IMG/VR virus record: IMGVR_UViG_3300045131_000274
Reading direction: 5' to 3' (one strand)
Length of the DNA: 64,000 nt
Source of the DNA: an uncultured virus (IMG/VR IMGVR_UViG_3300045131_000274)
Taxonomy: Duplodnaviria > Heunggongvirae > Uroviricota > Caudoviricetes
The position numbers and the translations under genes were made by a program. Shown in pieces: positions 28,653-62,917 of the stretch. How positions within the stretch are numbered: the stretch's first letter is position 1; each line of letters opens with the position of its first letter. The notes beneath the pieces are model-generated. The model saw only the letters and a list, made by a program, of their open reading frames with translations, was not told the origin of the DNA and made no database searches.

Positions 28653-29255
28653 TTACAGGCCAACGTTGTTTAAGAACGAATGGGCACTGGGGTTGAATTT
28701 AACCAACACATCAGTAAACGCATCGCCAGGAGTGGACGCAAAGCCCACAATACGGAACGCCGCAGCAGTTTGAACCACAGTAGACTCCAAAGCGGTTGTC
28801 GAGTTGCCAGTCTGGGTTGAACCAGTGCTAGTGCTCTGTACAGCGGCAAAGAAGGTGTTGCTGCCCAAAGCGGATTGAGCGGCAGAACCGTCAAGCTGAG
28901 CTTGGAAAGTAACAAATGGGTCAGTGATCACGTATGCAGTCACCACGCCGGTTGTGCCGGAAGGATAGTACTGACCGTAGATCTGTTGGCCTTGTGCGTT
29001 GATGTAAGAACAGCCGACGAAAACGCCGATTGCACCTACGTTAGCACCACCAAGGTTATTGGTAGTGATGTCTGCGCCGGTAGCGGTAGACAGAGCGATA
29101 TAACCGTCAGCGCCGATGATAACAACTTGTCCATAAAACAAGTTAGTACCTTCGCCAGCGGGGTCAATCAAGAACTGACTCGTAGCGCCAGCATAAGGCA
29201 TGCCGTCGATACGATTGATGGGTCGTAGCCCATAGGGTGCAGCAGTAGTTGCCAT
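28653..29255 (-). CDS. Capsid cement/decoration protein
   Basis: APYGLRP...GVFVGCSY...DP..F.AQ, immediately upstream of the MCP. Confidence 0.65.
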   Translation of the reverse strand: MATTAAPYGLRPINRIDGMPYAGATSQFLIDPAGEGTNLFYGQVVIIGADGYIALSTATGADITTNNLGGANVGAIGVFVGCSYINAQGQQIYGQYYPSGTTGVVTAYVITDPFVTFQAQLDGSAAQSALGSNTFFAAVQSTSTGSTQTGNSTTALESTVVQTAAAFRIVGFASTPGDAFTDVLVKFNPSAHSFLNNVGL

Positions 29256-29271: not shown

Positions 29272-29730
29272 TTAAATACCTTTTCCGAAAGTGACCGTGG
29301 ACTTACGTTCTTTGAACATAGGCATCCGCGGATCATTCTCGCGCATGTATGTGTTGTCAACTGATTGCATCTGAGCATCCGCTTGTTGGCGATAGTACTC
29401 ATTACGCTGTTCAGTAAACTCCACAGGTGTTTTGCAAAGCAGTAGACCACCTACTTCAATACTGTCTGGAAACTTTGCCGCAGCAGAATTAAACAGACGA
29501 ATCTCGGGATGATCAGACGCTTTAACGGGCTCCCAGCCCTCAGCAAGCTTCGAGGAATAGTTTGTGGCGTCATCTTTTCCTTGCGACGCAATTCGAATCC
29601 AACGAAACGCATAACCCTCTTCCGGATGTGGATCGGGTAGAAGTTTGGGGGGCATCCATTGTTTTGGACGCTCCGCCTTTTCGCGGGTTTCAAGTTCGCG
29701 TGGTGCGCGGTTAGTTTTTTCCATTTTCAT
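29272..29730 (-). CDS. Conserved head-module protein
   Basis: W.PP..LP.P...FRWIR...EGWEPV...GGLLLCK. Confidence 0.7.
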   Translation of the reverse strand: MKMEKTNRAPRELETREKAERPKQWMPPKLLPDPHPEEGYAFRWIRIASQGKDDATNYSSKLAEGWEPVKASDHPEIRLFNSAAAKFPDSIEVGGLLLCKTPVEFTEQRNEYYRQQADAQMQSVDNTYMRENDPRMPMFKERKSTVTFGKGI

Positions 29731-30671
29731 TTCCTCATTTCTTCAGCAACCTTACGAGCGTACAGTTCCAACGGAACTCCCAATCGCTTGGCGATATTCA
29801 CCTGTGTTTGCGTCAGCACGATTTTGCGCGGTGCTGTACTACGCGTTGCAGGTGCAACGATGTTGGATTTAGCGCGTTGAGGTTTCGCATCAACGGACTC
29901 TTCGGCTCCAAACTGATCCGAGAATCTTTCCCTGATGTCAGCGTCGATACGTCGGTAGTATTCTTCGCTGCCAGCCGGTATCCCTTCGCCTACCAAATCT
30001 TCATGCAACCCAAGGGCGTATGAAGTCATCCGTTTGTTAGGTCCAAACCACTGGTTCTTTTCAGTCCAAGCAAGCAGTTTGTCATCAAGCGGTGCAGGTT
30101 TAGTAGGCTGCGGTTGCATTTGTACAGGAGTTTCTGTTTCCTGTAAAGGGGTCGGCCTAAAATTATTTACCTTGTCTGCTTTCATCTTTGCCGTAGTTAA
30201 TGCTTCCTGAGCATTTACCAAAGCTTCAGAATCACCAGATTCGTATGCTAATTTATATTGGCGCTTAGCCGCCTCCACCTCATTGGCCACTACCTTTTTA
30301 GCCTGCTCAATCAAAGCCGTTTGATTTTGATTGACCGAGCCTTTGAGCTTTTTATTCTCTTCAGCCAGTGCCTGGGCAAAACGCAATGCCTCATCTTTTT
30401 CCCGCTCAGCAGTTTCTTTTGCGCGGCGCTCTTCGTGATAGCCTTTAGTGAAATGCTTAATACGCTTTTGAACCCCTTCGTCGTATCTGGTCAGTTCATC
30501 TTCGGCAAACTCTTTGGGCGGATCCGTCATAGGCGTACGGTTACGGTCTTCTTCCGGCGTATCGTCTATCACTTCTATTTCTGGATCCGGGTCCACCACT
30601 CTGCCGCCTTTGCGGGCGTTAACTTCCACCTCATCGGGAAATTCAAATTCTGTTTTTTCAATTTCTGCCAT
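29727..30671 (-). CDS. Capsid scaffolding protein
   Basis: Acidic N-terminus, coiled coil, W..KN.WFG and C-terminal LTQTQV.IAKRLGVPLELYA. Lies between portal and MCP. Confidence 0.75.
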   Translation of the reverse strand: MAEIEKTEFEFPDEVEVNARKGGRVVDPDPEIEVIDDTPEEDRNRTPMTDPPKEFAEDELTRYDEGVQKRIKHFTKGYHEERRAKETAEREKDEALRFAQALAEENKKLKGSVNQNQTALIEQAKKVVANEVEAAKRQYKLAYESGDSEALVNAQEALTTAKMKADKVNNFRPTPLQETETPVQMQPQPTKPAPLDDKLLAWTEKNQWFGPNKRMTSYALGLHEDLVGEGIPAGSEEYYRRIDADIRERFSDQFGAEESVDAKPQRAKSNIVAPATRSTAPRKIVLTQTQVNIAKRLGVPLELYARKVAEEMRK

Positions 30672-30681
30672 GATCTACTCC

Positions 30682-31086
30682 TTAGTTGGGGCGTTGGATA
30701 CCACGAGGGTCTTGCACAACCGCCTGGACGGAATCATCATTTATCAGGCGCCATTCGGTGCCATGAATCTTCATACGGGTTCCTGTGTTAGGACGTACTA
30801 ACACAAAGTCGCCAACTTTACAGCTTGGTCCAGATGGGAATCTGGCTTTATCTGCAAAAGCATCAGGGCCAATCTTTGCTACAAATAACACGGGGGATAA
30901 AAGCTCCTCGTGGTGCATTGCAGTTGCGGATTTTAAAATCCCCGTCTCACTAAACTCTTCTTCTGCCTTTGGCAACATACACAAAATATGGTATGTAGCC
31001 GGGTCTGGTACCTGCTTAGCTTTCTCTTCCACGGATGTATTGAGCAATCCGGAAAGATCTACAGCTTTCACATCAAATTCAGTCAT
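30682..31086 (-). CDS. GroES-like co-chaperonin
   Basis: P..YHIL...TGIL...V..IGPDA...CKVGDFVL...G.......E.RLINDDSV.AVV. Confidence 0.8.
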   Translation of the reverse strand: MTEFDVKAVDLSGLLNTSVEEKAKQVPDPATYHILCMLPKAEEEFSETGILKSATAMHHEELLSPVLFVAKIGPDAFADKARFPSGPSCKVGDFVLVRPNTGTRMKIHGTEWRLINDDSVQAVVQDPRGIQRPN

Positions 31087-31276
31087 CTTCATAATCCTTA
31101 GTTTTTCGCACGAGGTCAGCAAGTTCGTACTGCGCGGTTTGCAGACCCCGGATAGTCCCGCACAGCTCTTTATAGTGCTCATGGGATTTAGCTCCACCAG
31201 CACTAATTACATCGACTATCTGCTTGACATGTTCGTCAAGCTTGCCATCTAAGACTTCAAGCAGAGTAGCCATCAT
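31079..31276 (-). CDS. Small hypothetical protein
   Basis: 65 aa, coupled to the portal stop. Contains Y...CG.I.GL. Confidence 0.65.
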   Translation of the reverse strand: MMATLLEVLDGKLDEHVKQIVDVISAGGAKSHEHYKELCGTIRGLQTAQYELADLVRKTKDYEDD

Positions 31277-36359: not shown

Positions 36360-36389
36360 AATATACAGGAACAAAAGGCTTACTGTCAA
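36360..36389 (-). promoter_or_regulatory. Sigma70-type promoter of the late/terminase operon
   Basis: Minus strand TTGACA-18 nt-TATATT. Confidence 0.65.
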
Positions 36390-45945: not shown

Positions 45946-46099
45946 CAATCTCCACTGGCCCGTTAAACATAGCCATGCCCAACTGACCAAGCATGACCGC
46001 CTTTAAACGCTCTCGATCTTCTTCTGGGAACTCAGAGGCAACGTCATTCATTATTTTTAGAATGTCCTGTGCCATTTTTTGTGGTGTGATGGCGGTCAT
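45929..46099 (-). CDS. Hypothetical protein (56 aa)
   Basis: MTAITPQKMAQDILK..., with ATGA overlap. Not in the ORF track. Confidence 0.6.
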   Translation of the reverse strand: MTAITPQKMAQDILKIMNDVASEFPEEDRERLKAVMLGQLGMAMFNGPVEIDDGKA

Positions 46100-46326
46100 G
46101 CTTGTCCCCTTGCTCGGATTTCATTTGCTACTCCAGTTCTAGGCATACCATTGCTATTCCAATTCTCAGCAATGTCGGCACACGCCTCACGCTCATGTTG
46201 TGCTATTAGCTTGGCAAAGGCTTCAAGTTCTGGAGTATGAATTATCCAAAAGCCATTTTGCTCAGGGTCTACCTTGTCTTTGTCGCACGATGCTCTCAGC
46301 ATCGCAATGATTTCATCTTTTGTCAT
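46096..46326 (-). CDS. Small accessory protein (EREACA...IRARGQA family)
   Basis: Motif shared with 46323-46529 and 47100-47327. Confidence 0.7.
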   Translation of the reverse strand: MTKDEIIAMLRASCDKDKVDPEQNGFWIIHTPELEAFAKLIAQHEREACADIAENWNSNGMPRTGVANEIRARGQA

Positions 46327-46529
46327 GCTTGCCCCCTTTGGTCTATTGCCCGATAGCAAACAGCAACCGCCTCGTCAACAAATTGATTGCCTGTTTTCCA
46401 TGTGCAAAGTTTTTTGCATTCTGCACGCTCGGCAGAAGCGACAAGGTTGGCAAACTTGGCAAGAAACTCAGGAGTAGCGTCAAAGCCACCCGCCTCCCGC
46501 GTCCATTGTTCAATGTCTTCTCTGTTCAT
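46323..46529 (-). CDS. Small accessory protein (same family)
   Basis: MNREDI...FA.LV...ER..C...I.QRGQA. Confidence 0.7.
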   Translation of the reverse strand: MNREDIEQWTREAGGFDATPEFLAKFANLVASAERAECKKLCTWKTGNQFVDEAVAVCYRAIDQRGQA

Positions 46530-46780: not shown

Positions 46781-47103
46781 AAAACCTCCTCAAGAATGCG
46801 CCACGATTCCAACTTGTTGCCGTTTAAAGTAACCTCAACTGGAATGCCAACCATGTCTGCACATGAAGTTACCTTGGCTTGCTCCATTAGCTTTGCCACA
46901 CGACGGCACATCTCGCCCCAATGTTTAGTCTGATCCTCGACCGTCCACTGACAGTGCTGATCCGGAGTGCGTGTCCATGTGCCATCAAAGTCACCGACAC
47001 CCCAACCTTTACCGCCTAGCGTGACCGACATACCAAACATTGCACCGTCATAGCCGCCAAGACCAACGTCAAACTTTTGTATTTTGCCTAGCTCTTTAGT
47101 CAT
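46777..47103 (-). CDS. Hypothetical protein
   Basis: MTKELGKI...GYDGAMFG...G.PVEV......SWRIL.EVL. Confidence 0.7.
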   Translation of the reverse strand: MTKELGKIQKFDVGLGGYDGAMFGMSVTLGGKGWGVGDFDGTWTRTPDQHCQWTVEDQTKHWGEMCRRVAKLMEQAKVTSCADMVGIPVEVTLNGNKLESWRILEEVL

Positions 47104-47327
47104 GCTTGTCCCCTTGCTCGGATAGCTTCTGCAATAACTGTTGATGGGTGCGGATAACCTACTGCCCACTCGTCTGAAATCTTTGCACACGCCTCACGCT
47201 CCTCGGCAACAACCATCTCAACAAGGGTCATCAGGTGCTTGGTACTTACGTGCCACGACTTGTACTCTCGGTCTTTGTCTATGGCCTCAGCCAACATGTA
47301 GGTAATCTGTTCTGCGTTATAGGTCAT
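47100..47327 (-). CDS. Small accessory protein (EREACA...IRARGQA family)
   Basis: Family motif plus an ATGA overlap. Confidence 0.7.
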   Translation of the reverse strand: MTYNAEQITYMLAEAIDKDREYKSWHVSTKHLMTLVEMVVAEEREACAKISDEWAVGYPHPSTVIAEAIRARGQA

Positions 47328-47551
47328 CTGGGTGCCTCCTGATTTTTGTTTAGAAGTTTTTCAAAGTATTCGTTTGCATCTTTGACTTCGTACATCAGCT
47401 CTACGAACTGCATCAGGCCAGCAAAGTCGCAACGAATCTCGATGTCTGTTATTGGCAAATCCTGTTGATCTTTTGGAATCAACCCCGCCAATACGGCGTG
47501 CGCAACTACGGCGCTAAGCTCTATGCTTGGAAGTTTGTTTTCATTGGTCAT
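47324..47551 (-). CDS. Hypothetical protein
   Basis: 75 aa with AAGGAG RBS. Confidence 0.6.
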   Translation of the reverse strand: MTNENKLPSIELSAVVAHAVLAGLIPKDQQDLPITDIEIRCDFAGLMQFVELMYEVKDANEYFEKLLNKNQEAPR

Positions 47552-47727
47552 GAATTTTTCTCCTTGTTAAAATACCACTTCCATCTACGCTGCTTGGCAA
47601 TCAAACTAAGCATTTCTTTCGTATATCTTTCGAGTGCAACTCCCATCATGTTTGCAACCTTTACGTCGGTTGCAGACAAAAGAATCTTGCCAACCTTGTC
47701 TTGGCCCCTGACCTTACGGACTATCAC
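47548..47727 (-). CDS. 59-aa protein resembling the scaffold C-terminus
   Basis: GTGA and ATGA overlaps: MIVRKVRGQDKVGKILLSATDVKVANMMGVALERYTKEMLSLIAKQRRWKWYFNKEKNS. Not in the ORF track. Confidence 0.7.
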   Translation of the reverse strand: MIVRKVRGQDKVGKILLSATDVKVANMMGVALERYTKEMLSLIAKQRRWKWYFNKEKNS

Positions 47728-48071
47728 GCTTGCCCCAGTAACTTCAGACCTCGCTCCGCCAGCTTATCTTTAATTTCATTAAGACTTCTGCGGCCTAAAT
47801 TGGGTACTTTTAGTAAATCATTCTCGGTGCATCTAAGCAGCTGGCTGACCGTTCGAATGCTCTCCGCCTCCAGGCAAGACCTAGATCTAGCGCTTAGCTC
47901 CAAATTGGCAATATAAACATCGGCATTGGCGTCACGCAAAGTCCATTGCTCAATGATGTGCCGTCTGCGCTCTAACATCTCCCCTGCAAGGTCATAAGAC
48001 CTCACAAAACTATGCGGCGAAAGACGCAATATTTCTATTGCAAGTTGGTCCAGTAACTCTTCTTTGTTCAT
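47724..48071 (-). CDS. RNA polymerase alpha-CTD-like protein
   Basis: LELSARSRSCL..ESI..V.QL...TENDLLKVPNLGRRSLNEIK..L..RGL.L. Confidence 0.88.
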   Translation of the reverse strand: MNKEELLDQLAIEILRLSPHSFVRSYDLAGEMLERRRHIIEQWTLRDANADVYIANLELSARSRSCLEAESIRTVSQLLRCTENDLLKVPNLGRRSLNEIKDKLAERGLKLLGQA

Positions 48072-55366: not shown

Positions 55367-58300
55367 TCATTTAAGAGATTTGCGTAGTGACTCAGCTTGC
55401 TCGGCGTACATGCCAATCAACTCTTTCAAGCGGTCAATTTCTTCGCGTTTGTCTGAGCCGGACAGTCCTTCGTTGGCGTTGACTTCGCGGATCTGTTTAC
55501 GTATCGCAGCCATCTTCTTGGCTGTCTGATCGTAAATTTTAGCCAAAGCAATCTTGTCGCCCTTCTCTTCCATGATCTGCATAACTTTATCCGTTTGATT
55601 GGATTCAGCATAGTGGCGCATGTCGGCAAAGGCTTGGCTAATCTGACGGTTGTTCTCATAGAACGCAGTGGCATAGCGCGACTGGTTAGATGGCAATGAC
55701 TTAACCAACCCCAGACTAGCGCGGTCCAGCCACTTGGCATCAGGATAATCACCATCATTAAACGGCATAACGGCGTAATGACTTGTAACCGCAGCCGTGC
55801 TACCCAGCCAACCAAAGTAGGCCTTGATTGCATAGTCCACCTGGACGGGCGACAGCTCGCCCTTCTCACCCAGGATTGCGGTCATACCGCCCAAAGCTAT
55901 GGCCAGCGGGCTAGTTGTATCAGCTGCGCGCTCCTGCTTAGACAGGCGCTCCATGCCGGCGCTCTCAATAGGTGAGCCGGTAAAGCTATCTTTGTTGGCG
56001 TACAAATCCAGCACCGGTTTAAATATCTGCGGCACAGGATTCAAAGCAAACGTATCACCCAGCATGCGCTTGATACTGTCGCCAAACTGTTTGCCTTCTG
56101 CTTCCTGGTCAACGATCTGCTCCAGGACGCGCTCGGCCATGGTTCCAAATGCGCCAATTTCAAACGGCTTGGGTACACGGAATGCGAAGTCCATACCGGG
56201 CAACTTAAACCACCAGAAGTTATCGCGGTCCCATTCGTCTCTCTTCTTGTAGTCTTCGTCGTCTTTGAACATCATGTACAAAGCCATGGACGCACCGGCC
56301 ACAGCTAGTGTGGTGTAGCCAAACGCTTCAGCTTTCTGCTTGTCCGTCTGCTCAATGGGTTTGCCGGTCACGGTGTTGTACAAAACGCGCGCCGTAGGAG
56401 TTACACCATCACGGCCCAGCTTATACAAGCCTTGGACGCGGGCATTCATAAACGGCACCACTTGGGTCACCAATCTAAACGCCGGCCACGAACCCTGCAT
56501 TGAGAAGTCCAACAGATCCCTGGCAGCAAACGCCGCCTGGAGGTGCGTTAACTTACGCTCGCGCATCTGGTTGTACAAAGCCATACGGTTAGCAGCTTCA
56601 GATTTGTTGCCCCATTCCTGGTACTTATCCCAAGCGACGTTCAGGCCGGCTTTAATCTTTTCTTGGGTGTCCAAGATATGCTCACCCTTGACGCCCTGAG
56701 CCAGCAAACGCTTGATCAACCTGGACTGGTCGCCTTCATAAGCCGAGCCAAAGTTAAAGATTGCACCACCGGCCAGAGCAGAGATGTGCGCAGGATTGTT
56801 TTTATCCGTGGCGGCCCAGCCCTCAATCACGTTGGCAAATGGATTGCGCTTTAGGTCGCTAACAGCCAGCGCCTGGATTGAATCGCGAATCAAGTTGTTT
56901 ACTTTGAAGCCGGGGGCAATCGTCACGCCGTATTGCAGTAGGTTCTTGAAGTCACGAGCAACATCCAGGAACTTTGACTTGGGGCCCAAGTAACCAATAG
57001 ATGTAATGGAATCTAGCAGCATCGGATCCAGCACTTCAAAGTAAGCGGGCTGGCCGTTGATCATTGTCTTGACCATGCCTTTGCCGGCTTCCATATATTC
57101 TGGACGCAACGAACCATCCCCCACTACTTCCCCTGATTTAGTGGATACCACCTGACCGTCTTCCCAAGCCAGGCCAACTTTTAGGTTTGGAATAGCAGCG
57201 CCAGCTTCCATTGCGGCATTGAGCGTTGCGTTGGACGCCTGGTTCTTCATCGACGCTGACAGGATATGACTCCAGTTGCGCAAAGTGTTTTCCATCAGGT
57301 CGCCAAATGGTTTATCGCTCTGGCCCTTCAGCTCAGCACTAAACTTCTGGCTAGTTAAACCGGAAGCCGTGGCCGCGTCTTGCAGGTCACCACTTTCCAT
57401 TTGTTTATAAAAAGGAATGTAGAACAGATCCTGGGAGAAACGCTCATAAGCCGCCTTGTCCATTAGGCCGGCGTTGTACGCAACATCCAGCACAGATTTA
57501 TTCAAGGCGTTCATGTCCTGCTGAACCTCTTGATACACCTCTAAGCGGGGTCTACCATTGATTTCACCTTGCACCAATTGATCACGGTCAGCAAGCAGCG
57601 GGGCTAGATTGGGAGAACGCTTTTCAATAGGCAGGCGCGACTCACGACCCAGGGCAATCCACATCATGTAGCGGTCTGTCTCAGCACCGACGGGCTTCAT
57701 AGCTTCAAACAAACCTTTGGTCTTGCCTTTGATATCCAGGGCGCCACCGTTGTTGTAAACATGGCCGTGCATCAGCAAACCTTCTAGCGCACCGTCCACA
57801 GTCTTTGACAGGCGGGCCATCATGTAAGCCTCTTCGCTGTAGTCTTTGATGGTGCGGTACTGGTCAGCAATACCTTGGGCGGCACGGCGCCAGAAGCCAT
57901 CCCTCATGCCGGCAATGCGGTCAATGATGGTCTTGGTCTGGGGGTTAAAGACTTCGCCTAGCTTTTTAACATAATCCGCATCCATGTCGGACAGGGCTTC
58001 GCGGTTAATAGGCTCACGCTTTTGTAGCTTCTGCTGGGCTGCAGCTTTGACGGATGCTGCAACCTTGGCGGCCGTGTCACCCGCTTCTTTCAGCATGAAC
58101 ATTTCCATCTGCGCATCTTGCGAGATGATTGGCGGAATCGTCATGTCCTGGGCTTTTTGAGCGGCTTCATTAGCAGCTTCCAAATACTTCTTGAACGTTT
58201 CGTTAGGCAGGTAGCCAGCATTCTTTACCTTGGCATAGAACGCACGAAGCGAATCAGCCAAGCGTTTAAAGAACTGCTCAACCACACCCACAGGCTTGTC

Positions 58301-61300
58301 GGACGTTAAAGCCCAACGTGAAACCTGGTCGGCATACCATTCTTTAAAGTTAAACCAATACGGATCCATGTGGGCAGCCATAGCGCCTTCACTAATGTCC
58401 GTGGTTTTTGCCGTTGTCTTGGCGCGCAAAGAATTTACCAGCTCGCGGGCGGTCTTGCCTTTGGTGGACGCCAACCACTTGTCGTACTCAGCTTTGATGG
58501 CCGCCTGGGTTTCAGCTGGTGCTTTGTTAAACACCTCAAACTGGTGCATGTGGCCCATCTCGTGCGCCATAATTTCTAGCATTGACGTAATGCTAGAAGA
58601 CGGCGTCATGGCAATGTAGTAATCTCCATTCGGCATCTGGCGCATCGAGCCTGCCAAACGGTAGTCCAGGGCGGCAGATCCAACGGCGCGCCACTGGCCC
58701 GTCATGTTGTGTGCATCTACGCGGGCATCAGGTATGGTGGTGATGTAGATGTTGTTATTAATACCCAACATCTCTTTCCAACCCTTGACCACGCCAGCAA
58801 TTTTAGGCGGCATGTTTTTGGAAAACGCCAACCCATTTTTGTCAAATTTGATAAATGGATTCTCAGCTTCTGCCTGCGCGTCGGCAGTTTCCAGGTCCAA
58901 CCTGACCTGACGCAACTCTTTAGTTTCAGCATCTGTTAAACCGTTGGTGCCTTGTTGCGTATCAATATCAAAGTTGTTGCGGGTAAAATCTTTGATGGCC
59001 ACATAAACCGGATTGCCTGTTCGCTTATTCCAGCCGCGCACTAAAGCCAACGATCCGCGCTGCCAGACCACTTGGCCGTTGACACCTTCGGCGCCAGCAT
59101 CTACAAACGCAATCTGCTCTGGCGTAGCATCCCGCAGCATGTACAAGAACTCACCGCGGTCGGAGTACTGGACATTTTTAGCCAGCACAAAACGGCCTAT
59201 CTGGATGACGTCGTCAGCAGCTATCACGGGCTGCTTGGTTGCCCGGTCATAGAAGTAGGAGTGACGCAGCGGATCAAAGCTGACCTGTGACCATGCTTTA
59301 TCTTTCAATAAGCGCTGGACCATTGCATAGGCTTCTTCAGGCGTAATGCTGACCCAGTTACCTTCCATCGTTTGCTGGGGTGACTTGTTGCCCTGGTCTA
59401 CCTTGTTACCACTCTTGCTAATTGTCGGCTCAGCCTGGGTGGCCACCTTCATGGCAGCCTTTTGGTTACGAATAGAGAACCGTACGTTCTGTATGCGGGC
59501 AGCGCTTGAGTAACTGATGGGTGAATTAGGATTGTTTTCTGGATGGATAGCAACAACGCTACCTGTCAGACCCTGAGATTTAGCGCGGCCCAGGGCATTA
59601 ATATCCATGCGCAAACCAACCGGCGTACCGTCAGCAATCGGCGCATTCATTTTGGATATCTGGTTAGTCTGCAAAACCAACTTCATGTCAGATTGAGACA
59701 TGGGCCGCTCAGGGTTTGGAATCGTGCCAATAGGCATGTAGAAATCTACATACTCATCAAACTGTTCTTTGGTAATGCGGCCAGCTTGTAGTTCGCGGGC
59801 AGCCAACACAACCTGTTGCTTACGGCCTTCTTTTGTCTTAAAGCCTTCGGGAGGCTTAAGCTCGGGAGGTGCCCTGGGCTTTGCTGGTTCTGCAAAGATA
59901 TCTGTCTGACCAAGAGACGCAGCAACATCAGCATCCCGGTCGCTACCTGTCAGGACAAAGTCAGCAGCAGCTTCGTCGGCTTTAGCTTTCTCTTCCGCCG
60001 CACGATCAACAGCTTTCCTGTCTTTTTCCGCTTTGATTGCAGCATCTTGCTTAGCCACAATCTCTTCAACGGAAGGTTGGGTTAGCTCGAGCCCAGCTCC
60101 CTCATCGCTCGGTTGGCCAGTATCCTGGACGCTATCTTCACGGCCTGCGGTGATGGTGTCTTCGAGGGCTGACTTGAAGGCTTTGTAGTAGGCTTGGACG
60201 GACTGGTTTTCTGTTTCATAAAAGACCTCTTCTTGAATGGATGCCGTATCAATACCCAGCTCATCGGCTTGAGCCAACAGCGCGCGCACTTCAGCTTGAA
60301 CATCAGGCTCGGCAGCGTCGTAGCCCGTACCGTCAAAGTCAGACATCTCATATCCCAACTCTTCATCAATAGGGGAATACAGGGATGCTTCTTCTTCTGC
60401 TTTTAGGTAATCAGCAAAGCGCTTTTCTTCGTCGCGCTTCGTCATTTCTTCCACGTCTTGTGGGCGGTACTGGGGCTTCTTGACGCTGTCCGTAATCATC
60501 TTGCGGGCATCGTTCTGGGTTGCGTTCTCACCCAGGTAGCCAGCTTCTTGAAGCTTGGTGTAAGCCTCTTCCATGCTGATGCCTTTGCCTTCGCCGGCAA
60601 ATAGGAATCGGTTGCCAACACGAATGTTTTTGTCCATGCCCAGATCAGACATTTCAGATTTAACCAAGCCGCCTTCGCTGGTGATGTACTCATGCGCAGA
60701 CATGGGCACACCTGTAGCCGACGTCTTGGCCAGGCCTAAACGTTTAGCTTTGGCTTCATCAGCAGCAATCTGCTTGGGCGTCTTGGGTGCCAAGATGAAA
60801 CCCTTCTTATCCTTTGTGGGCAAGACGCGCATTTCAGGGTAGTTTTTACGCGCCATATCCGCTGACTTGCGGGATTTAAATGGTACGCCGCCTTCAGTAA
60901 CGGGCTGCGGTGCTACCGCCAACTTACCCTTCTCGTCCAGCTCACGCTTGGCAGCTGCGTCGTGGCCAATGTTGTCAGGGTGATTAAAGTAATCCACCTT
61001 GGGCTCTTTAGGCGTAACCACCTTAGCGGGCGGGATCAGGCCCAGCTCATCTACTTCAGCTTGCGTAAGCGACGGATACTCTTCCCGCACTGCAGGCGTC
61101 GTGGTAACGGCCGGCGTCTCTGGCGGCTTTTCCAGCGTTAAAGATGTGGGTGTGACGGCTGGTGTAGCCGGCTTAGGCTGGGGCGTCAGGTTACCCTTCT
61201 TGTCCAGCTTTAGCTCATATCCCAATTCACCCAACGCTTCACGCTGACGGGCGTTATTCATGATCGGGTCACGGCTGTATGCGGTAGCCATAATCCCATT

Positions 61301-62917
61301 CACGCGTGACTGAATGTCTGTGGCTTCAGCAGCCTTCTTGTCTTGCTCAGCTTTAGCCGCGGCCGCAGCTTGGTCTGCCTGGCGCTGACGGATAGACGCC
61401 ATTAAATCTTCGTTAGCTGTAGTCCCAGCCAGGGACTGACGCACCTCATCAGCCCGCCGGCCTTCAGCAATCTTTGCTTCTTGAGCCGCGCGCTCAGCCG
61501 CAATATCTCTACCCGCTGGCGGAATAGGAACAACAACATCGTTGCCTTGTTTATCCCTAGACATTTGGTAACCCAGGGTAGCCAGCTGTTCATCACGGCG
61601 GATGGCGTTAAGCGCTGGATCACCGCTGTACGTAGCGGCAGCAGTAGCTTTGGCTTCGGCATCACGCTTAGCTTTAGCTTCTTTCTCAGCCTGGACGCGC
61701 AACTCTTCATCGGCAGCAGCCTTCTCATCAGCACGAACCCGAGCGGCCTGCATTAAATCTTCATTACGTGGGGCAGCTTGTTGCTCAAACAAACCAGCAG
61801 CGCGTTCTTGTGTAGCACGTTGTGCGTCCAGCTCATCTTGTCTAGCTTTAGCGGCGGCAGCTTCACGCTCACGGGCCGCACCCATGACATCAGCACCCAT
61901 ACCCTGACGGCCAGCAGCTTGCTCCCGGAACATCTCGGCGGGTGTTTTTCCGGTTAGGGAAACAGGCGGCTTGTATGCTTCTGGCTCAGGCTCAGGCGTA
62001 ACGGTAGGTTTACGCAGCGCACCAGCAGCCGCACCACCCACACCACCAACAGCAGCAGCGCCAAAGAATGCCTCTTTGTATTCGCGCATAGCATCATCAC
62101 CCTTGAGGGGTAAGCCTGCTTGCCAACGTTCACCCATCTGCTCAAGCACTTCAGTAGGCGCTTCGGCCACCACACCAACGGTAGCGCCAGTAGCAGCACG
62201 GACGCCGGCCCGTTTGGCTAACTCAGCCGCGACCTGCTGACCTAGAATCTTTTCTGGTACGTTACCAAACCCCAGCATTAACCTGTCGGCAAAGTAACCA
62301 ATAGGCGCCGTAACCGCGGCAGTAGCGGCAGCTTTACCAGGCGCAAGGGTTTCACCAGTAGCGCCTTCTTCAGCCTGACGGCGCATGAAGTTACCAAACT
62401 GTTGTAGGCCATACGTACCAATACCCGCCACCGGGCCAACAATTGGGGCAAACGGGCCAGACACAGCAGCAGCGCCAATACCAGCGGCCAACGGCACAGC
62501 CATAGATGGAGCGCTTTGTAATACCTGCTCAGTCAGGTAGGATGGAACCTTCTTGGCCGCAGACAGTAGGCCCTGTTCTTGATATGCTTTTTCCAGATCA
62601 GCAAACGACACGCCCTGGGGTTTGTTTGCTTCCGCCTGCGCCTGGGCGCGAATGTCTTCTGCTTGTTTGCTGGCAGACTCCCGCATTCCCAGGGCAGCTT
62701 TAATGCCCAACCCAATGCCGGCAGCGCTTTCAGGCACGGCTTCAAAGCCACGGACAGCAGCAGCTTTAGCACTACCTAGAAAGGTGGGCTCCGCTGGTAG
62801 GGGCTCAGCCTGCCCCTGCATACTCTTGATGTATGTGGCTATTTGCGTGGCCGCCTGTACGTCACCCGCCGCATGCGCGTTTTGTAGCGCACGGTAAAGA
62901 GTCTGCATGTCTGCCAT
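55367..62917 (-). CDS. Giant internal virion / large polyvalent protein with HExxH zincin-like domain and LPD38-like C-terminus
   Basis: 2516 aa. Hydrophobic Ala/Gly N-terminal region, AHEMGH...EWYAD, and PFMNARVQG...W.RDNFW...RVPKPFEIG. Confidence 0.75.
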   Translation of the reverse strand: MADMQTLYRALQNAHAAGDVQAATQIATYIKSMQGQAEPLPAEPTFLGSAKAAAVRGFEAVPESAAGIGLGIKAALGMRESASKQAEDIRAQAQAEANKPQGVSFADLEKAYQEQGLLSAAKKVPSYLTEQVLQSAPSMAVPLAAGIGAAAVSGPFAPIVGPVAGIGTYGLQQFGNFMRRQAEEGATGETLAPGKAAATAAVTAPIGYFADRLMLGFGNVPEKILGQQVAAELAKRAGVRAATGATVGVVAEAPTEVLEQMGERWQAGLPLKGDDAMREYKEAFFGAAAVGGVGGAAAGALRKPTVTPEPEPEAYKPPVSLTGKTPAEMFREQAAGRQGMGADVMGAAREREAAAAKARQDELDAQRATQERAAGLFEQQAAPRNEDLMQAARVRADEKAAADEELRVQAEKEAKAKRDAEAKATAAATYSGDPALNAIRRDEQLATLGYQMSRDKQGNDVVVPIPPAGRDIAAERAAQEAKIAEGRRADEVRQSLAGTTANEDLMASIRQRQADQAAAAAKAEQDKKAAEATDIQSRVNGIMATAYSRDPIMNNARQREALGELGYELKLDKKGNLTPQPKPATPAVTPTSLTLEKPPETPAVTTTPAVREEYPSLTQAEVDELGLIPPAKVVTPKEPKVDYFNHPDNIGHDAAAKRELDEKGKLAVAPQPVTEGGVPFKSRKSADMARKNYPEMRVLPTKDKKGFILAPKTPKQIAADEAKAKRLGLAKTSATGVPMSAHEYITSEGGLVKSEMSDLGMDKNIRVGNRFLFAGEGKGISMEEAYTKLQEAGYLGENATQNDARKMITDSVKKPQYRPQDVEEMTKRDEEKRFADYLKAEEEASLYSPIDEELGYEMSDFDGTGYDAAEPDVQAEVRALLAQADELGIDTASIQEEVFYETENQSVQAYYKAFKSALEDTITAGREDSVQDTGQPSDEGAGLELTQPSVEEIVAKQDAAIKAEKDRKAVDRAAEEKAKADEAAADFVLTGSDRDADVAASLGQTDIFAEPAKPRAPPELKPPEGFKTKEGRKQQVVLAARELQAGRITKEQFDEYVDFYMPIGTIPNPERPMSQSDMKLVLQTNQISKMNAPIADGTPVGLRMDINALGRAKSQGLTGSVVAIHPENNPNSPISYSSAARIQNVRFSIRNQKAAMKVATQAEPTISKSGNKVDQGNKSPQQTMEGNWVSITPEEAYAMVQRLLKDKAWSQVSFDPLRHSYFYDRATKQPVIAADDVIQIGRFVLAKNVQYSDRGEFLYMLRDATPEQIAFVDAGAEGVNGQVVWQRGSLALVRGWNKRTGNPVYVAIKDFTRNNFDIDTQQGTNGLTDAETKELRQVRLDLETADAQAEAENPFIKFDKNGLAFSKNMPPKIAGVVKGWKEMLGINNNIYITTIPDARVDAHNMTGQWRAVGSAALDYRLAGSMRQMPNGDYYIAMTPSSSITSMLEIMAHEMGHMHQFEVFNKAPAETQAAIKAEYDKWLASTKGKTARELVNSLRAKTTAKTTDISEGAMAAHMDPYWFNFKEWYADQVSRWALTSDKPVGVVEQFFKRLADSLRAFYAKVKNAGYLPNETFKKYLEAANEAAQKAQDMTIPPIISQDAQMEMFMLKEAGDTAAKVAASVKAAAQQKLQKREPINREALSDMDADYVKKLGEVFNPQTKTIIDRIAGMRDGFWRRAAQGIADQYRTIKDYSEEAYMMARLSKTVDGALEGLLMHGHVYNNGGALDIKGKTKGLFEAMKPVGAETDRYMMWIALGRESRLPIEKRSPNLAPLLADRDQLVQGEINGRPRLEVYQEVQQDMNALNKSVLDVAYNAGLMDKAAYERFSQDLFYIPFYKQMESGDLQDAATASGLTSQKFSAELKGQSDKPFGDLMENTLRNWSHILSASMKNQASNATLNAAMEAGAAIPNLKVGLAWEDGQVVSTKSGEVVGDGSLRPEYMEAGKGMVKTMINGQPAYFEVLDPMLLDSITSIGYLGPKSKFLDVARDFKNLLQYGVTIAPGFKVNNLIRDSIQALAVSDLKRNPFANVIEGWAATDKNNPAHISALAGGAIFNFGSAYEGDQSRLIKRLLAQGVKGEHILDTQEKIKAGLNVAWDKYQEWGNKSEAANRMALYNQMRERKLTHLQAAFAARDLLDFSMQGSWPAFRLVTQVVPFMNARVQGLYKLGRDGVTPTARVLYNTVTGKPIEQTDKQKAEAFGYTTLAVAGASMALYMMFKDDEDYKKRDEWDRDNFWWFKLPGMDFAFRVPKPFEIGAFGTMAERVLEQIVDQEAEGKQFGDSIKRMLGDTFALNPVPQIFKPVLDLYANKDSFTGSPIESAGMERLSKQERAADTTSPLAIALGGMTAILGEKGELSPVQVDYAIKAYFGWLGSTAAVTSHYAVMPFNDGDYPDAKWLDRASLGLVKSLPSNQSRYATAFYENNRQISQAFADMRHYAESNQTDKVMQIMEEKGDKIALAKIYDQTAKKMAAIRKQIREVNANEGLSGSDKREEIDRLKELIGMYAEQAESLRKSLK

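Follow-up and report, generated by a model that had tools for sequence, protein, structure and literature searches.

A small accessory gene of HTVC023P-like phages with a core related to the C-terminal tip of a putative scaffolding protein

The window, a 64,000-nucleotide stretch of phage DNA, encodes a 59-aa protein (ORF59) whose central segment is, as judged by profile comparisons, homologous to the C-terminal tip of a 314-aa putative scaffolding protein of the same genome and is not a generic helix-turn-helix (HTH). The likeness looks like descent by duplication rather than convergent mimicry. Tentatively, ORF59 may well be a monovalent capsid-docking hook that acts either as a passenger of the head or as a competitor of the scaffold.

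Results

Homology between the ORF59 core and the tip of the putative scaffold

Residues 14-38 of ORF59 align without gaps with residues 283-307 of the 314-aa protein (Table 1), 11 of 25 positions being identical and 17 positive. The ungapped BLOSUM62 score, 59 at best, was reached in none of 5000 shuffles of ORF59 (mean 26, maximum 52), and the scaffold ORF was the top match among 1144 other stop-to-stop frames of the window, the next of which scored 45. Pairwise BLASTP of ORF59 against the 314-aa protein missed the core segment, indicating that each partner of the window's own pair is weakly typical of its family; the match becomes clear with family profiles. At the DNA level 38 of 75 positions of the core segment are identical, which excludes a recent duplication.

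Profile-profile comparison of the ORF59 family with 14 tips yielded 97.2% (E 2.9e-11), and hhalign with 45 diverse tips yielded 97.4% (E 1.2e-11, 34 columns). When 68 ORF59 members were searched singly against 38,880 PHROGs, 17 of them matched the scaffold family PHROG 28737, which was the top family (best E 8e-6). The tip profile recovered 61 of 61 distinct ORF59 frames among 58,120 (50 at E<=0.01), and the ORF59 profile scored at least 12 bits in 45 of 45 scaffold tips, compared with a maximum of 4.4 bits in 40 HTH controls. With an ORF59 relative as query against 50,697 phage records, the seven scaffold homologues had the seven lowest E-values among 15 rows. Six-frame searches of 39 records gave 12 strong matches, all of them ORF59 genes, and 36 weaker rows in frames of 285-412 aa, which were confirmed as scaffold in the records that were fetched. 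The resemblance of the 59-aa ORF to the scaffold C-terminus, which the initial annotation had noted from the gap-free alignment, is thus upheld. A generic HTH, named there as the alternative explanation, does not account for it: none of the 40 ordinary HTH controls scored alike or reached 12 bits, and no HTH Pfam family was among the matches of the 68 ORF59 members.

The predicted helices coincide as well, lying at residues 19-28 and 32-46 of ORF59 and at 19-28 and 32-44 in the numbering of the tip model (single-sequence model, pLDDT 77). Across the two families, identity between ORF59 and the tips reached 17 of 25 positions and averaged 32%, and the scaffold-like portion covers about 25-34 of the 59 residues of ORF59. 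A motif further upstream in the scaffold (A4 and R8 at 98%) has no in-register counterpart in ORF59, and a global hhalign run aligned the first strand of ORF59 with this motif without confidence. A tree of the core (25 columns, 57 of 113 rows) left 30 of 54 branches open and required 1-2 label changes between ORF59 and scaffold tips.

Table 1. Positions of ORF59, its scaffold counterpart and related features (window positions unless a locus is named)
Feature	Position	Strand	Remarks
ORF59	47548..47727	(-)	59 aa, GTG start, basic protein, pI 10.4
Scaffold-tip-like core of ORF59	47614..47688	(-)	residues 14-38
Family-specific C-terminal part of ORF59	47566..47610	(-)	residues 40-54; not in scaffold
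Upstream neighbour of ORF59	47724..48071	(-)	115 aa, RNA polymerase alpha C-terminal domain; not always next to members of the family
Putative scaffolding protein, 314 aa (PHROG 28737)	29727..30671	(-)	between GroES-like gene and capsid
Scaffold C-terminal tip, residues 283-307	29751..29825	(-)	matches ORF59 core and Mu I/Z C-terminus
Major capsid protein, 304 aa	27725..28639	(-)	Phage_capsid_4 E 7e-15; Mu-like gpT E 5e-10; PHROG 371
DUF3310 protein, 81 aa	45320..45565	(-)	without module in the window
HTH-DUF6378 proteins of relatives examined for the module	L148:4589-5338, L019:3273-4058, L150, L151, L017, L176, L392:1496-2236		0, 1 or 2 copies
HTH-DUF3310 protein with module copy	L178:1258-1929

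The 314-aa gene as a probable scaffold gene

The head operon of the window runs in the order terminase, portal, GroES-like gene, 314-aa gene, 152-aa gene, 200-aa gene and capsid gene. Homologues of the 314-aa protein are present in 7 of 50,697 GenBank phage records, including the Pelagibacter phages HTVC023P and HTVC027P and phage DSL-LC04; the five GenBank relatives that were opened have the same gene order, and their annotation of the 314-aa homologue reads hypothetical or kinesin-like. A GroES-like co-chaperonin gene (30682-31203, minus strand) lies directly upstream of the scaffold gene and occupies the same place in all five relatives. Between scaffold and capsid, 29272-29730 (152 aa, PHROG 36003) and 28653-29255 (200 aa, no match), both on the minus strand, belong to no named family, and their order is kept in HTVC023P-type phages. 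A near-consensus sigma-70-type promoter (11/12) at 36360-36389 on the minus strand ends at the start of a 241-aa ORF that heads the packaging and head genes.

Sequence relationships place the phage as HTVC023P-like with a capsid of the Mu gpT type. It is therefore not P22-like, the group from which the initial annotation had taken its background, and the label 'scaffold' needed testing; the shared motif is likewise of the Mu I/Z type, and the P22 scaffold gave no match in any search made. The PHROG 371 match of the capsid begins at residue 1, which would leave no room for a built-in scaffold domain. The 314-aa gene has what is expected of a scaffold gene, namely a kept position upstream of the capsid gene and an acidic, helical product with a basic C-terminal tip. 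The layout of this product comprises an acidic N-terminus, an Ala/charge-rich middle, a Pro-rich linker and a basic two-helix C-terminal tip.

The C-terminal motif of the Mu scaffold Z has the same spacing as the 314-aa tip. The ORF59 profile placed Mu gpI/Z at the top of 188 frames (E 4e-4) and picked the C-termini of SuMu gpI and a Ralstonia phage I protein (E 3e-4 among 52 frames, 2e-4 among 99 frames), while tip profiles reached E 0.69 for Mu gpI/Z, and E 2.9 for Mu gpZ, which ranked fifth. Ten of the 45 tips matched PF10123 (Mu-like_Pro, best E 0.008); in PHROGs, 6 of the 45 matched a head-protease family and 1 a scaffolding family. Beyond its own family, one tip searched against GenBank phages found SuMu gpI (E 0.5) and also matched 86 records of Ralstonia phages, with E 0.9 in the rows shown; in the one of these 86 records that was opened the match was the extreme C-terminus of a PF10123 protein located before a gpT capsid. 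PDB sequence searches gave no solved structure in which a Mu-type tip is bound to a capsid. A distant scaffold homologue (L223:2763-3890) has a tip with an insertion that is off-motif, and this tip was excluded from the 45-row alignment.

The weakness of the Mu match in each single sequence counts against the scaffold link, as do matches of 14 of the 45 tips to HTH_Crp_2 (best E 4e-4). Jointly, the repeated Mu I/Z tip matches and the gpT-like capsid make it very probable that the 314-aa gene encodes the scaffold. The description of the partner as the phage's own scaffold holds to that extent; ORF59 is not tuned to it, since the ORF59 core was no closer to the tip of its own genome than to those of others (12 genomes, p=0.22). 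A C-terminal scaffold element docks on the capsid in P22 (PMC9965877), 80alpha (PMC5644958) and Pa193 (PMC11456595); in the passages found of the JBD30 procapsid paper (PMC11445458) no contact of a Mu-type tip is described. By analogy, the scaffold tip would bind the inner face of the capsid protein, which is the presumed target of ORF59.

The ORF59 family

A word-seeded search confirmed 93 ORF59 homologues out of 94 candidates, and the homologues found by an unseeded HMMER search form 30 clusters at 50% identity. Nearly all relatives are 55-64 aa long when start calls are allowed for. With the family profile, 110 loci were confirmed among 144 pattern matches in viral contigs and 120 among 370 matches in metagenome contigs. 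The dN/dS ratio is 0.20 overall (25 non-overlapping pairs from 63 coding sequences), with 0.17 for residues 2-13, 0.24 for the core and 0.17 for residues 39-54. The conservation of the ORF, on which the initial annotation had made its reading depend, is thereby confirmed, and these values indicate a real conserved gene under purifying selection.

The family pattern of the core is L17, E/Q21, A/V25, K/R26-27, G29, E33 and Y35. The charged positions of the tip are kept throughout the family (E/Q21 95%, K/R26 87%, K/R27 85%), as are G29 (96%), E/D33 (84%) and an aromatic residue at position 35 (97%). Two small residues of the scaffold are enlarged in ORF59, A25 to V in 59% and A36 to V/I in 92%, and L40, I43 and A44 add a hydrophobic stripe that continues along the second helix; together this is the pattern expected if the old binding face packs on the hairpin and tail. 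In the C-terminal part L40, I43, A44, K45, R47, W49 and W51 are conserved. A44, R47 and W49, all outside the shared core, are invariant across 68 rows, and the most conserved residues are found in the basic hairpin and the Arg/Trp tail, not in the scaffold-like core, although conservation of the flanks is perhaps partly inflated because the whole protein was used in collecting homologues.

The ORF59 of the window is among the more drifted members, with a long branch and E 0.019 to the tip profile. It had been described as unannotated, and indeed gave no family match at E<=0.001 in Pfam, PHROGs, PADLOC and NCBIfam and no match among 50,697 GenBank phage records. PDB sequence searches returned nothing meaningful for ORF59, the tips, Mu gpZ, the capsid or the Mu-like I protein. 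In the ESM Atlas, ORF59 and the tip fell into unnamed clusters only; the nearest named cluster for both was the T7 capsid assembly protein PF05396 at 0.82 (44% of members), below the 0.9 line. A search among longer proteins gave one of 7999 candidates, a read-through of the upstream gene on a 1-kb contig, and returned no scaffolds, a blank that is weak evidence with this tool.

Locus, expression signals and distribution

ORF59 contains 14 K+R compared with 5 D+E. Its start codon overlaps the stop of the upstream neighbour, and at the other end its stop codon runs into the start of 47324-47551. AlphaFold2 with a 68-row alignment predicted a confident monomer fold (pLDDT 91.5) with a beta-hairpin (2-5, 12-16), helices at 19-28 and 32-46 and a short Arg/Trp helix at 50-53. 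The Shine-Dalgarno-like run in front of the GTG start is weak in the window; such a run, defined by a loose pattern without background, was present at 109 of 116 coding sequences of the family, and 110 of 116 distinct coding sequences start with ATG in the same register. Promoter and terminator scans of the window were at chance level (12 vs 12.6 and 25 vs 20.5). Two RNA runs share 5-6% of words with the window; in one, 47544-47909 was covered by a single 481-nt contig (depth 3.4, 20 differences), which cannot show transcription or timing, and in the second it had no cover. ORF59 shares its strand with the gene run leading to helicase and primase, and this position suggests that it is expressed early and is non-structural.

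The RNA polymerase alpha C-terminal domain of the upstream neighbour (Pfam E 1e-21) follows a short unrelated N-terminal part, and this protein is possibly a decoy or adaptor for transcription factors. Elsewhere in the window, 55367-62917 (minus strand) encodes a large polyvalent-type protein of 2516 aa in which an LPD38 domain (Pfam E 1e-34) lies close to the C-terminus.

Among 12 virus records picked by scaffold similarity, one carried ORF59, and none of the seven of these that were at least 90% complete did; it was absent from 11 MAG-hosted relatives and from 5 GenBank isolates. All 13 carriers examined (window included) have the 314-aa scaffold, whole in 12 and cut at the contig end in one. 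They are phage records of 43-65 kb with their own scaffold, and a capsid gene was found in 11 of the 13. These capsids are 80-100% identical to that of the window and those of four non-carriers 92-94%, from which it follows that ORF59 is both gained and lost across the clade. The capsid homologues lie on contigs binned into unrelated MAGs, so no host can be inferred.

Across 60 distinct loci ORF59 has no fixed neighbour and is surrounded by small ORFs of accessory type; 28 of the 60 have a DUF6378/DUF3310 cluster no more than 4 kb away. ORF59 is thus an accessory gene of some phages of freshwater type, patchy and clade-bound, and the search for homologues and their context revealed a real family with variable neighbours. 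Three small minus-strand ORFs of the window (46096-46359, 46323-46529 and 47100-47327) are related to one another, have similar C-termini and form one cluster, which recurs in 27 of 60 related loci; they make up a repeated mobile mini-gene family.

Module copies in DUF6378 and DUF3310 proteins

Both the ORF59 and the tip profile matched linkers of neighbouring HTH-DUF6378 and HTH-DUF3310 proteins in relatives, a module copy of at least 7 bits being present in 5 of 30 distinct DUF6378/DUF3310-like frames. Among 13 aligned HTH-DUF6378 proteins, five have two tandem copies, one has one copy, one a remnant and six none, and 80 metagenome loci added one further two-copy protein. The two-copy proteins are 73-82% identical and may therefore stem from one event. 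The first linker copy is nearer to the scaffold tips, and in L148 it maps to positions 268-329 of the 330-position Mu-like_Pro model (E 0.014); the second copy of L148 is nearer to an ORF59 member (17 of 33 positions, including the hairpin). One HTH-DUF3310 protein (L178) has a single strong copy (29.9 bits) that its relatives do not have. As a scaffold-like copy free of hairpin and tail is kept in DUF6378 linkers, the bare module appears useful alone, and the linker copies suggest a role of the module as a capsid-docking tag.

Discussion

The reading that we tentatively favour is that of a monovalent hook on the capsid. ORF59 would have arisen by duplication of the last 30-45 codons of an HTVC023P-like scaffold gene, the duplicated tip would then have acquired the basic N-terminal hairpin and the Arg/Trp tail, and the gene would now move among genomes of the clade as an accessory member of the small-ORF cluster of the replication region. 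ORF59 would retain the docking of the tip on the capsid protein and occupy scaffold sites singly. Unlike a scaffold, it has 59 aa with 13 residues before the core and lies outside the head operon; lacking the long oligomerising body, it would build no shell. At a low level ORF59 may be a passenger of procapsids with its basic/aromatic tail facing inside, and the copies in HTH-DUF6378 and HTH-DUF3310 proteins might be the same hook serving as a tag. If made early or in excess, it could cap free capsid protein and slow head assembly; as the capsids of the clade are 80-100% identical, the assembly of a co-infecting relative would be slowed as well as its own. We regard the passenger or tag role and the competitor role as about equally probable. 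A complex prediction of capsid (44-row) and ORF59 (68-row) scored 0.01 against a mark of 0.32; controls were not folded, and the result bears neither way. To the poisoning of competitors, timing of assembly and decoy of a host sensor that the initial annotation had put forward, all of which would be conceivable functions, the linker copies suggest adding a docking tag as a fourth candidate.

Several observations count against simple docking. The core is the least constrained part of the protein and holds none of the invariant residues, the enlarged residues and the added stripe would suit a former binding face that is now packed, ORF59 lies about 17 kb from the head genes in the window, and a scaffold gene was present in none of 99 ORF59 loci fetched (flanks of at most 10 kb, many shorter). 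The unmatched upstream motif of the scaffold and the missing relation to the own genome's scaffold also count against it.

A lesser but serious possibility is that ORF59 has the same origin and a new job, the tip being kept as a folding unit while the hairpin and the Arg/Trp tail bind nucleic acid, membrane or a host protein in takeover or replication. Flanks that are more constrained than the core and hold all invariant residues would be explained in this way, and so would the basic composition, the confident monomer fold that includes the added hairpin and tail, the replication-region site among variable neighbours and the lack of any special closeness of the core to the scaffold of its own genome; in addition, the module is otherwise carried by HTH proteins. 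Such a new job is harder to reconcile with the charged surface positions of the tip, which are kept across 68 diverse rows, with a cross-family identity of up to 17 of 25 and with the maintenance of the scaffold-like copy in DUF6378 linkers without hairpin or tail. The 'scaffold mimic' of the initial annotation looks like a product of duplication; its limited scaffold-like portion and the strongest conservation outside that portion speak against a simple mimic.

It is unlikely that ORF59 is a decoy for a host defence sensor of the scaffold tip or of the scaffold-capsid complex. A small, patchy and mobile gene of the accessory region would suit such a role, and there is a precedent in scaffold-linked CBASS escape: escape mutations lie in scaffolding domains, in one case at the very C-terminus, and CBASS-dependent toxicity was set off by a scaffold domain (10.1101/2023.05.21.541620). 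However, a free copy of the trigger might equally activate the sensor, and no defence system could be linked to ORF59. The lack of a PADLOC match carries little weight, as this library holds defence genes.

Less probable still is an unrelated small DNA-binding regulator of the ribbon-helix-helix (RHH) or HTH type that converged on the tip. The order strand-helix-helix, the many RHH proteins among weak fold matches (Foldseek E 4-9, VIA Z about 3) and matches of 4 of 68 members to a 'DNA binding protein' PHROG (E 0.04 or weaker) would fit this explanation. However, the model of the scaffold tip draws the same RHH entries (TraM, PutA, NikR, SvtR, StnY), so the RHH matches are generic, and none of them reaches E 0.001 or Z 5, the fold matches staying at Z<4. 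In fold searches with the ORF59 and tip models no entry of any kind passed E<=0.001 or Z>=5; no phage scaffold chain was listed, which says little about a match to one. No RHH family was among the eight Pfam families matched by the 68 members, and the HTH controls stayed far from the ORF59 profile. RHH helices are longer than 10 residues, and the first helix of ORF59 has 10. That ORF59 is a chance ORF or decaying fragment, as the GTG start, the weak Shine-Dalgarno-like run and the drift of the window copy might indicate, is hardly credible in view of the purifying selection, the 93 homologues and 30 clusters of nearly uniform length, the shared ATG register and the stop/start overlaps at both ends.

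If it docks on the capsid, ORF59 would work like CpmB of SaPI1, which binds the capsid protein by scaffold-like contacts and competes with the 80alpha scaffold (PMC5644958). Both are small, free-standing proteins with a scaffold C-terminal motif (72 aa for CpmB). CpmB is encoded by a satellite, shrinks the helper capsid and needs CpmA (PMC5644958), whereas ORF59 belongs to a full phage genome that also encodes a scaffold; the motif of CpmB is of the RIIK type, that of ORF59 of the Mu I/Z type. In CpmB the motif is at the extreme C-terminus after a helical dimer domain, whereas in ORF59 it is central, between hairpin and Arg/Trp tail. With another encoder, motif and architecture, ORF59 is not of the CpmB type.

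Mu I/Z proteins (PF10123) share the spacing of the motif (L, +4 E/Q, +8 A/V, +12 G, +18 Y), which lies at the extreme C-terminus in Mu gpZ, SuMu gpI and the Ralstonia phage I protein, and the partner capsid is likewise gpT-like. In contrast to Mu I/Z, the 314-aa protein has no whole-length PF10123 match and no protease domain, and ORF59 has the motif only, with matches far below the Pfam cut-off. The T4 internal proteins are brought into the head by a short portable unit too, a capsid-targeting sequence that is an N-terminal peptide cut off by the head protease, whereas the ORF59-type module copies the scaffold tip as a folded unit, sits internally and would be packaged by docking. P22 gp8 is comparable in that its basic C-terminal unit has two helices and about 30 residues and is bound inside the procapsid (PMC9965877); this is an analogy only, no sequence or fold match having been found in the searches made. 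Engineered C-terminal fragments of the P22 scaffold bring fused cargo into shells (PMC9962691), and these fusions resemble what is proposed for the module in that a short portable unit takes accessory proteins into the head.

Proteins that resemble scaffolds are known to be encoded by satellites, which parasitise helper phages. In the open-access literature we found no paper on a free phage-encoded scaffold tip or on the ORF59 family. With this comparison, the unannotated scaffold of HTVC023P-type phages receives an assignment that can be tested, and a 25-residue Mu I/Z-type motif emerges as a unit that may bind the capsid. If the tip has instead been put to a new job, ORF59 would be a clear case of a new gene made from a fragment of a structural protein. 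A lytic-type phage that has a free copy of its own scaffold tip and uses the tip again in further accessory genes would, if true, point to a way of loading cargo or of competing with sibling phages for which we found no description in the open-access literature. It is possible, if rather doubtful, that the capsid-binding tip has become a portable tag, used in a mini-protein and in DUF6378/DUF3310 linkers, by which an abundant aquatic phage clade would load accessory proteins into its heads, to be delivered when the next cell is infected, or jam the head assembly of co-infecting relatives at an immutable capsid site.
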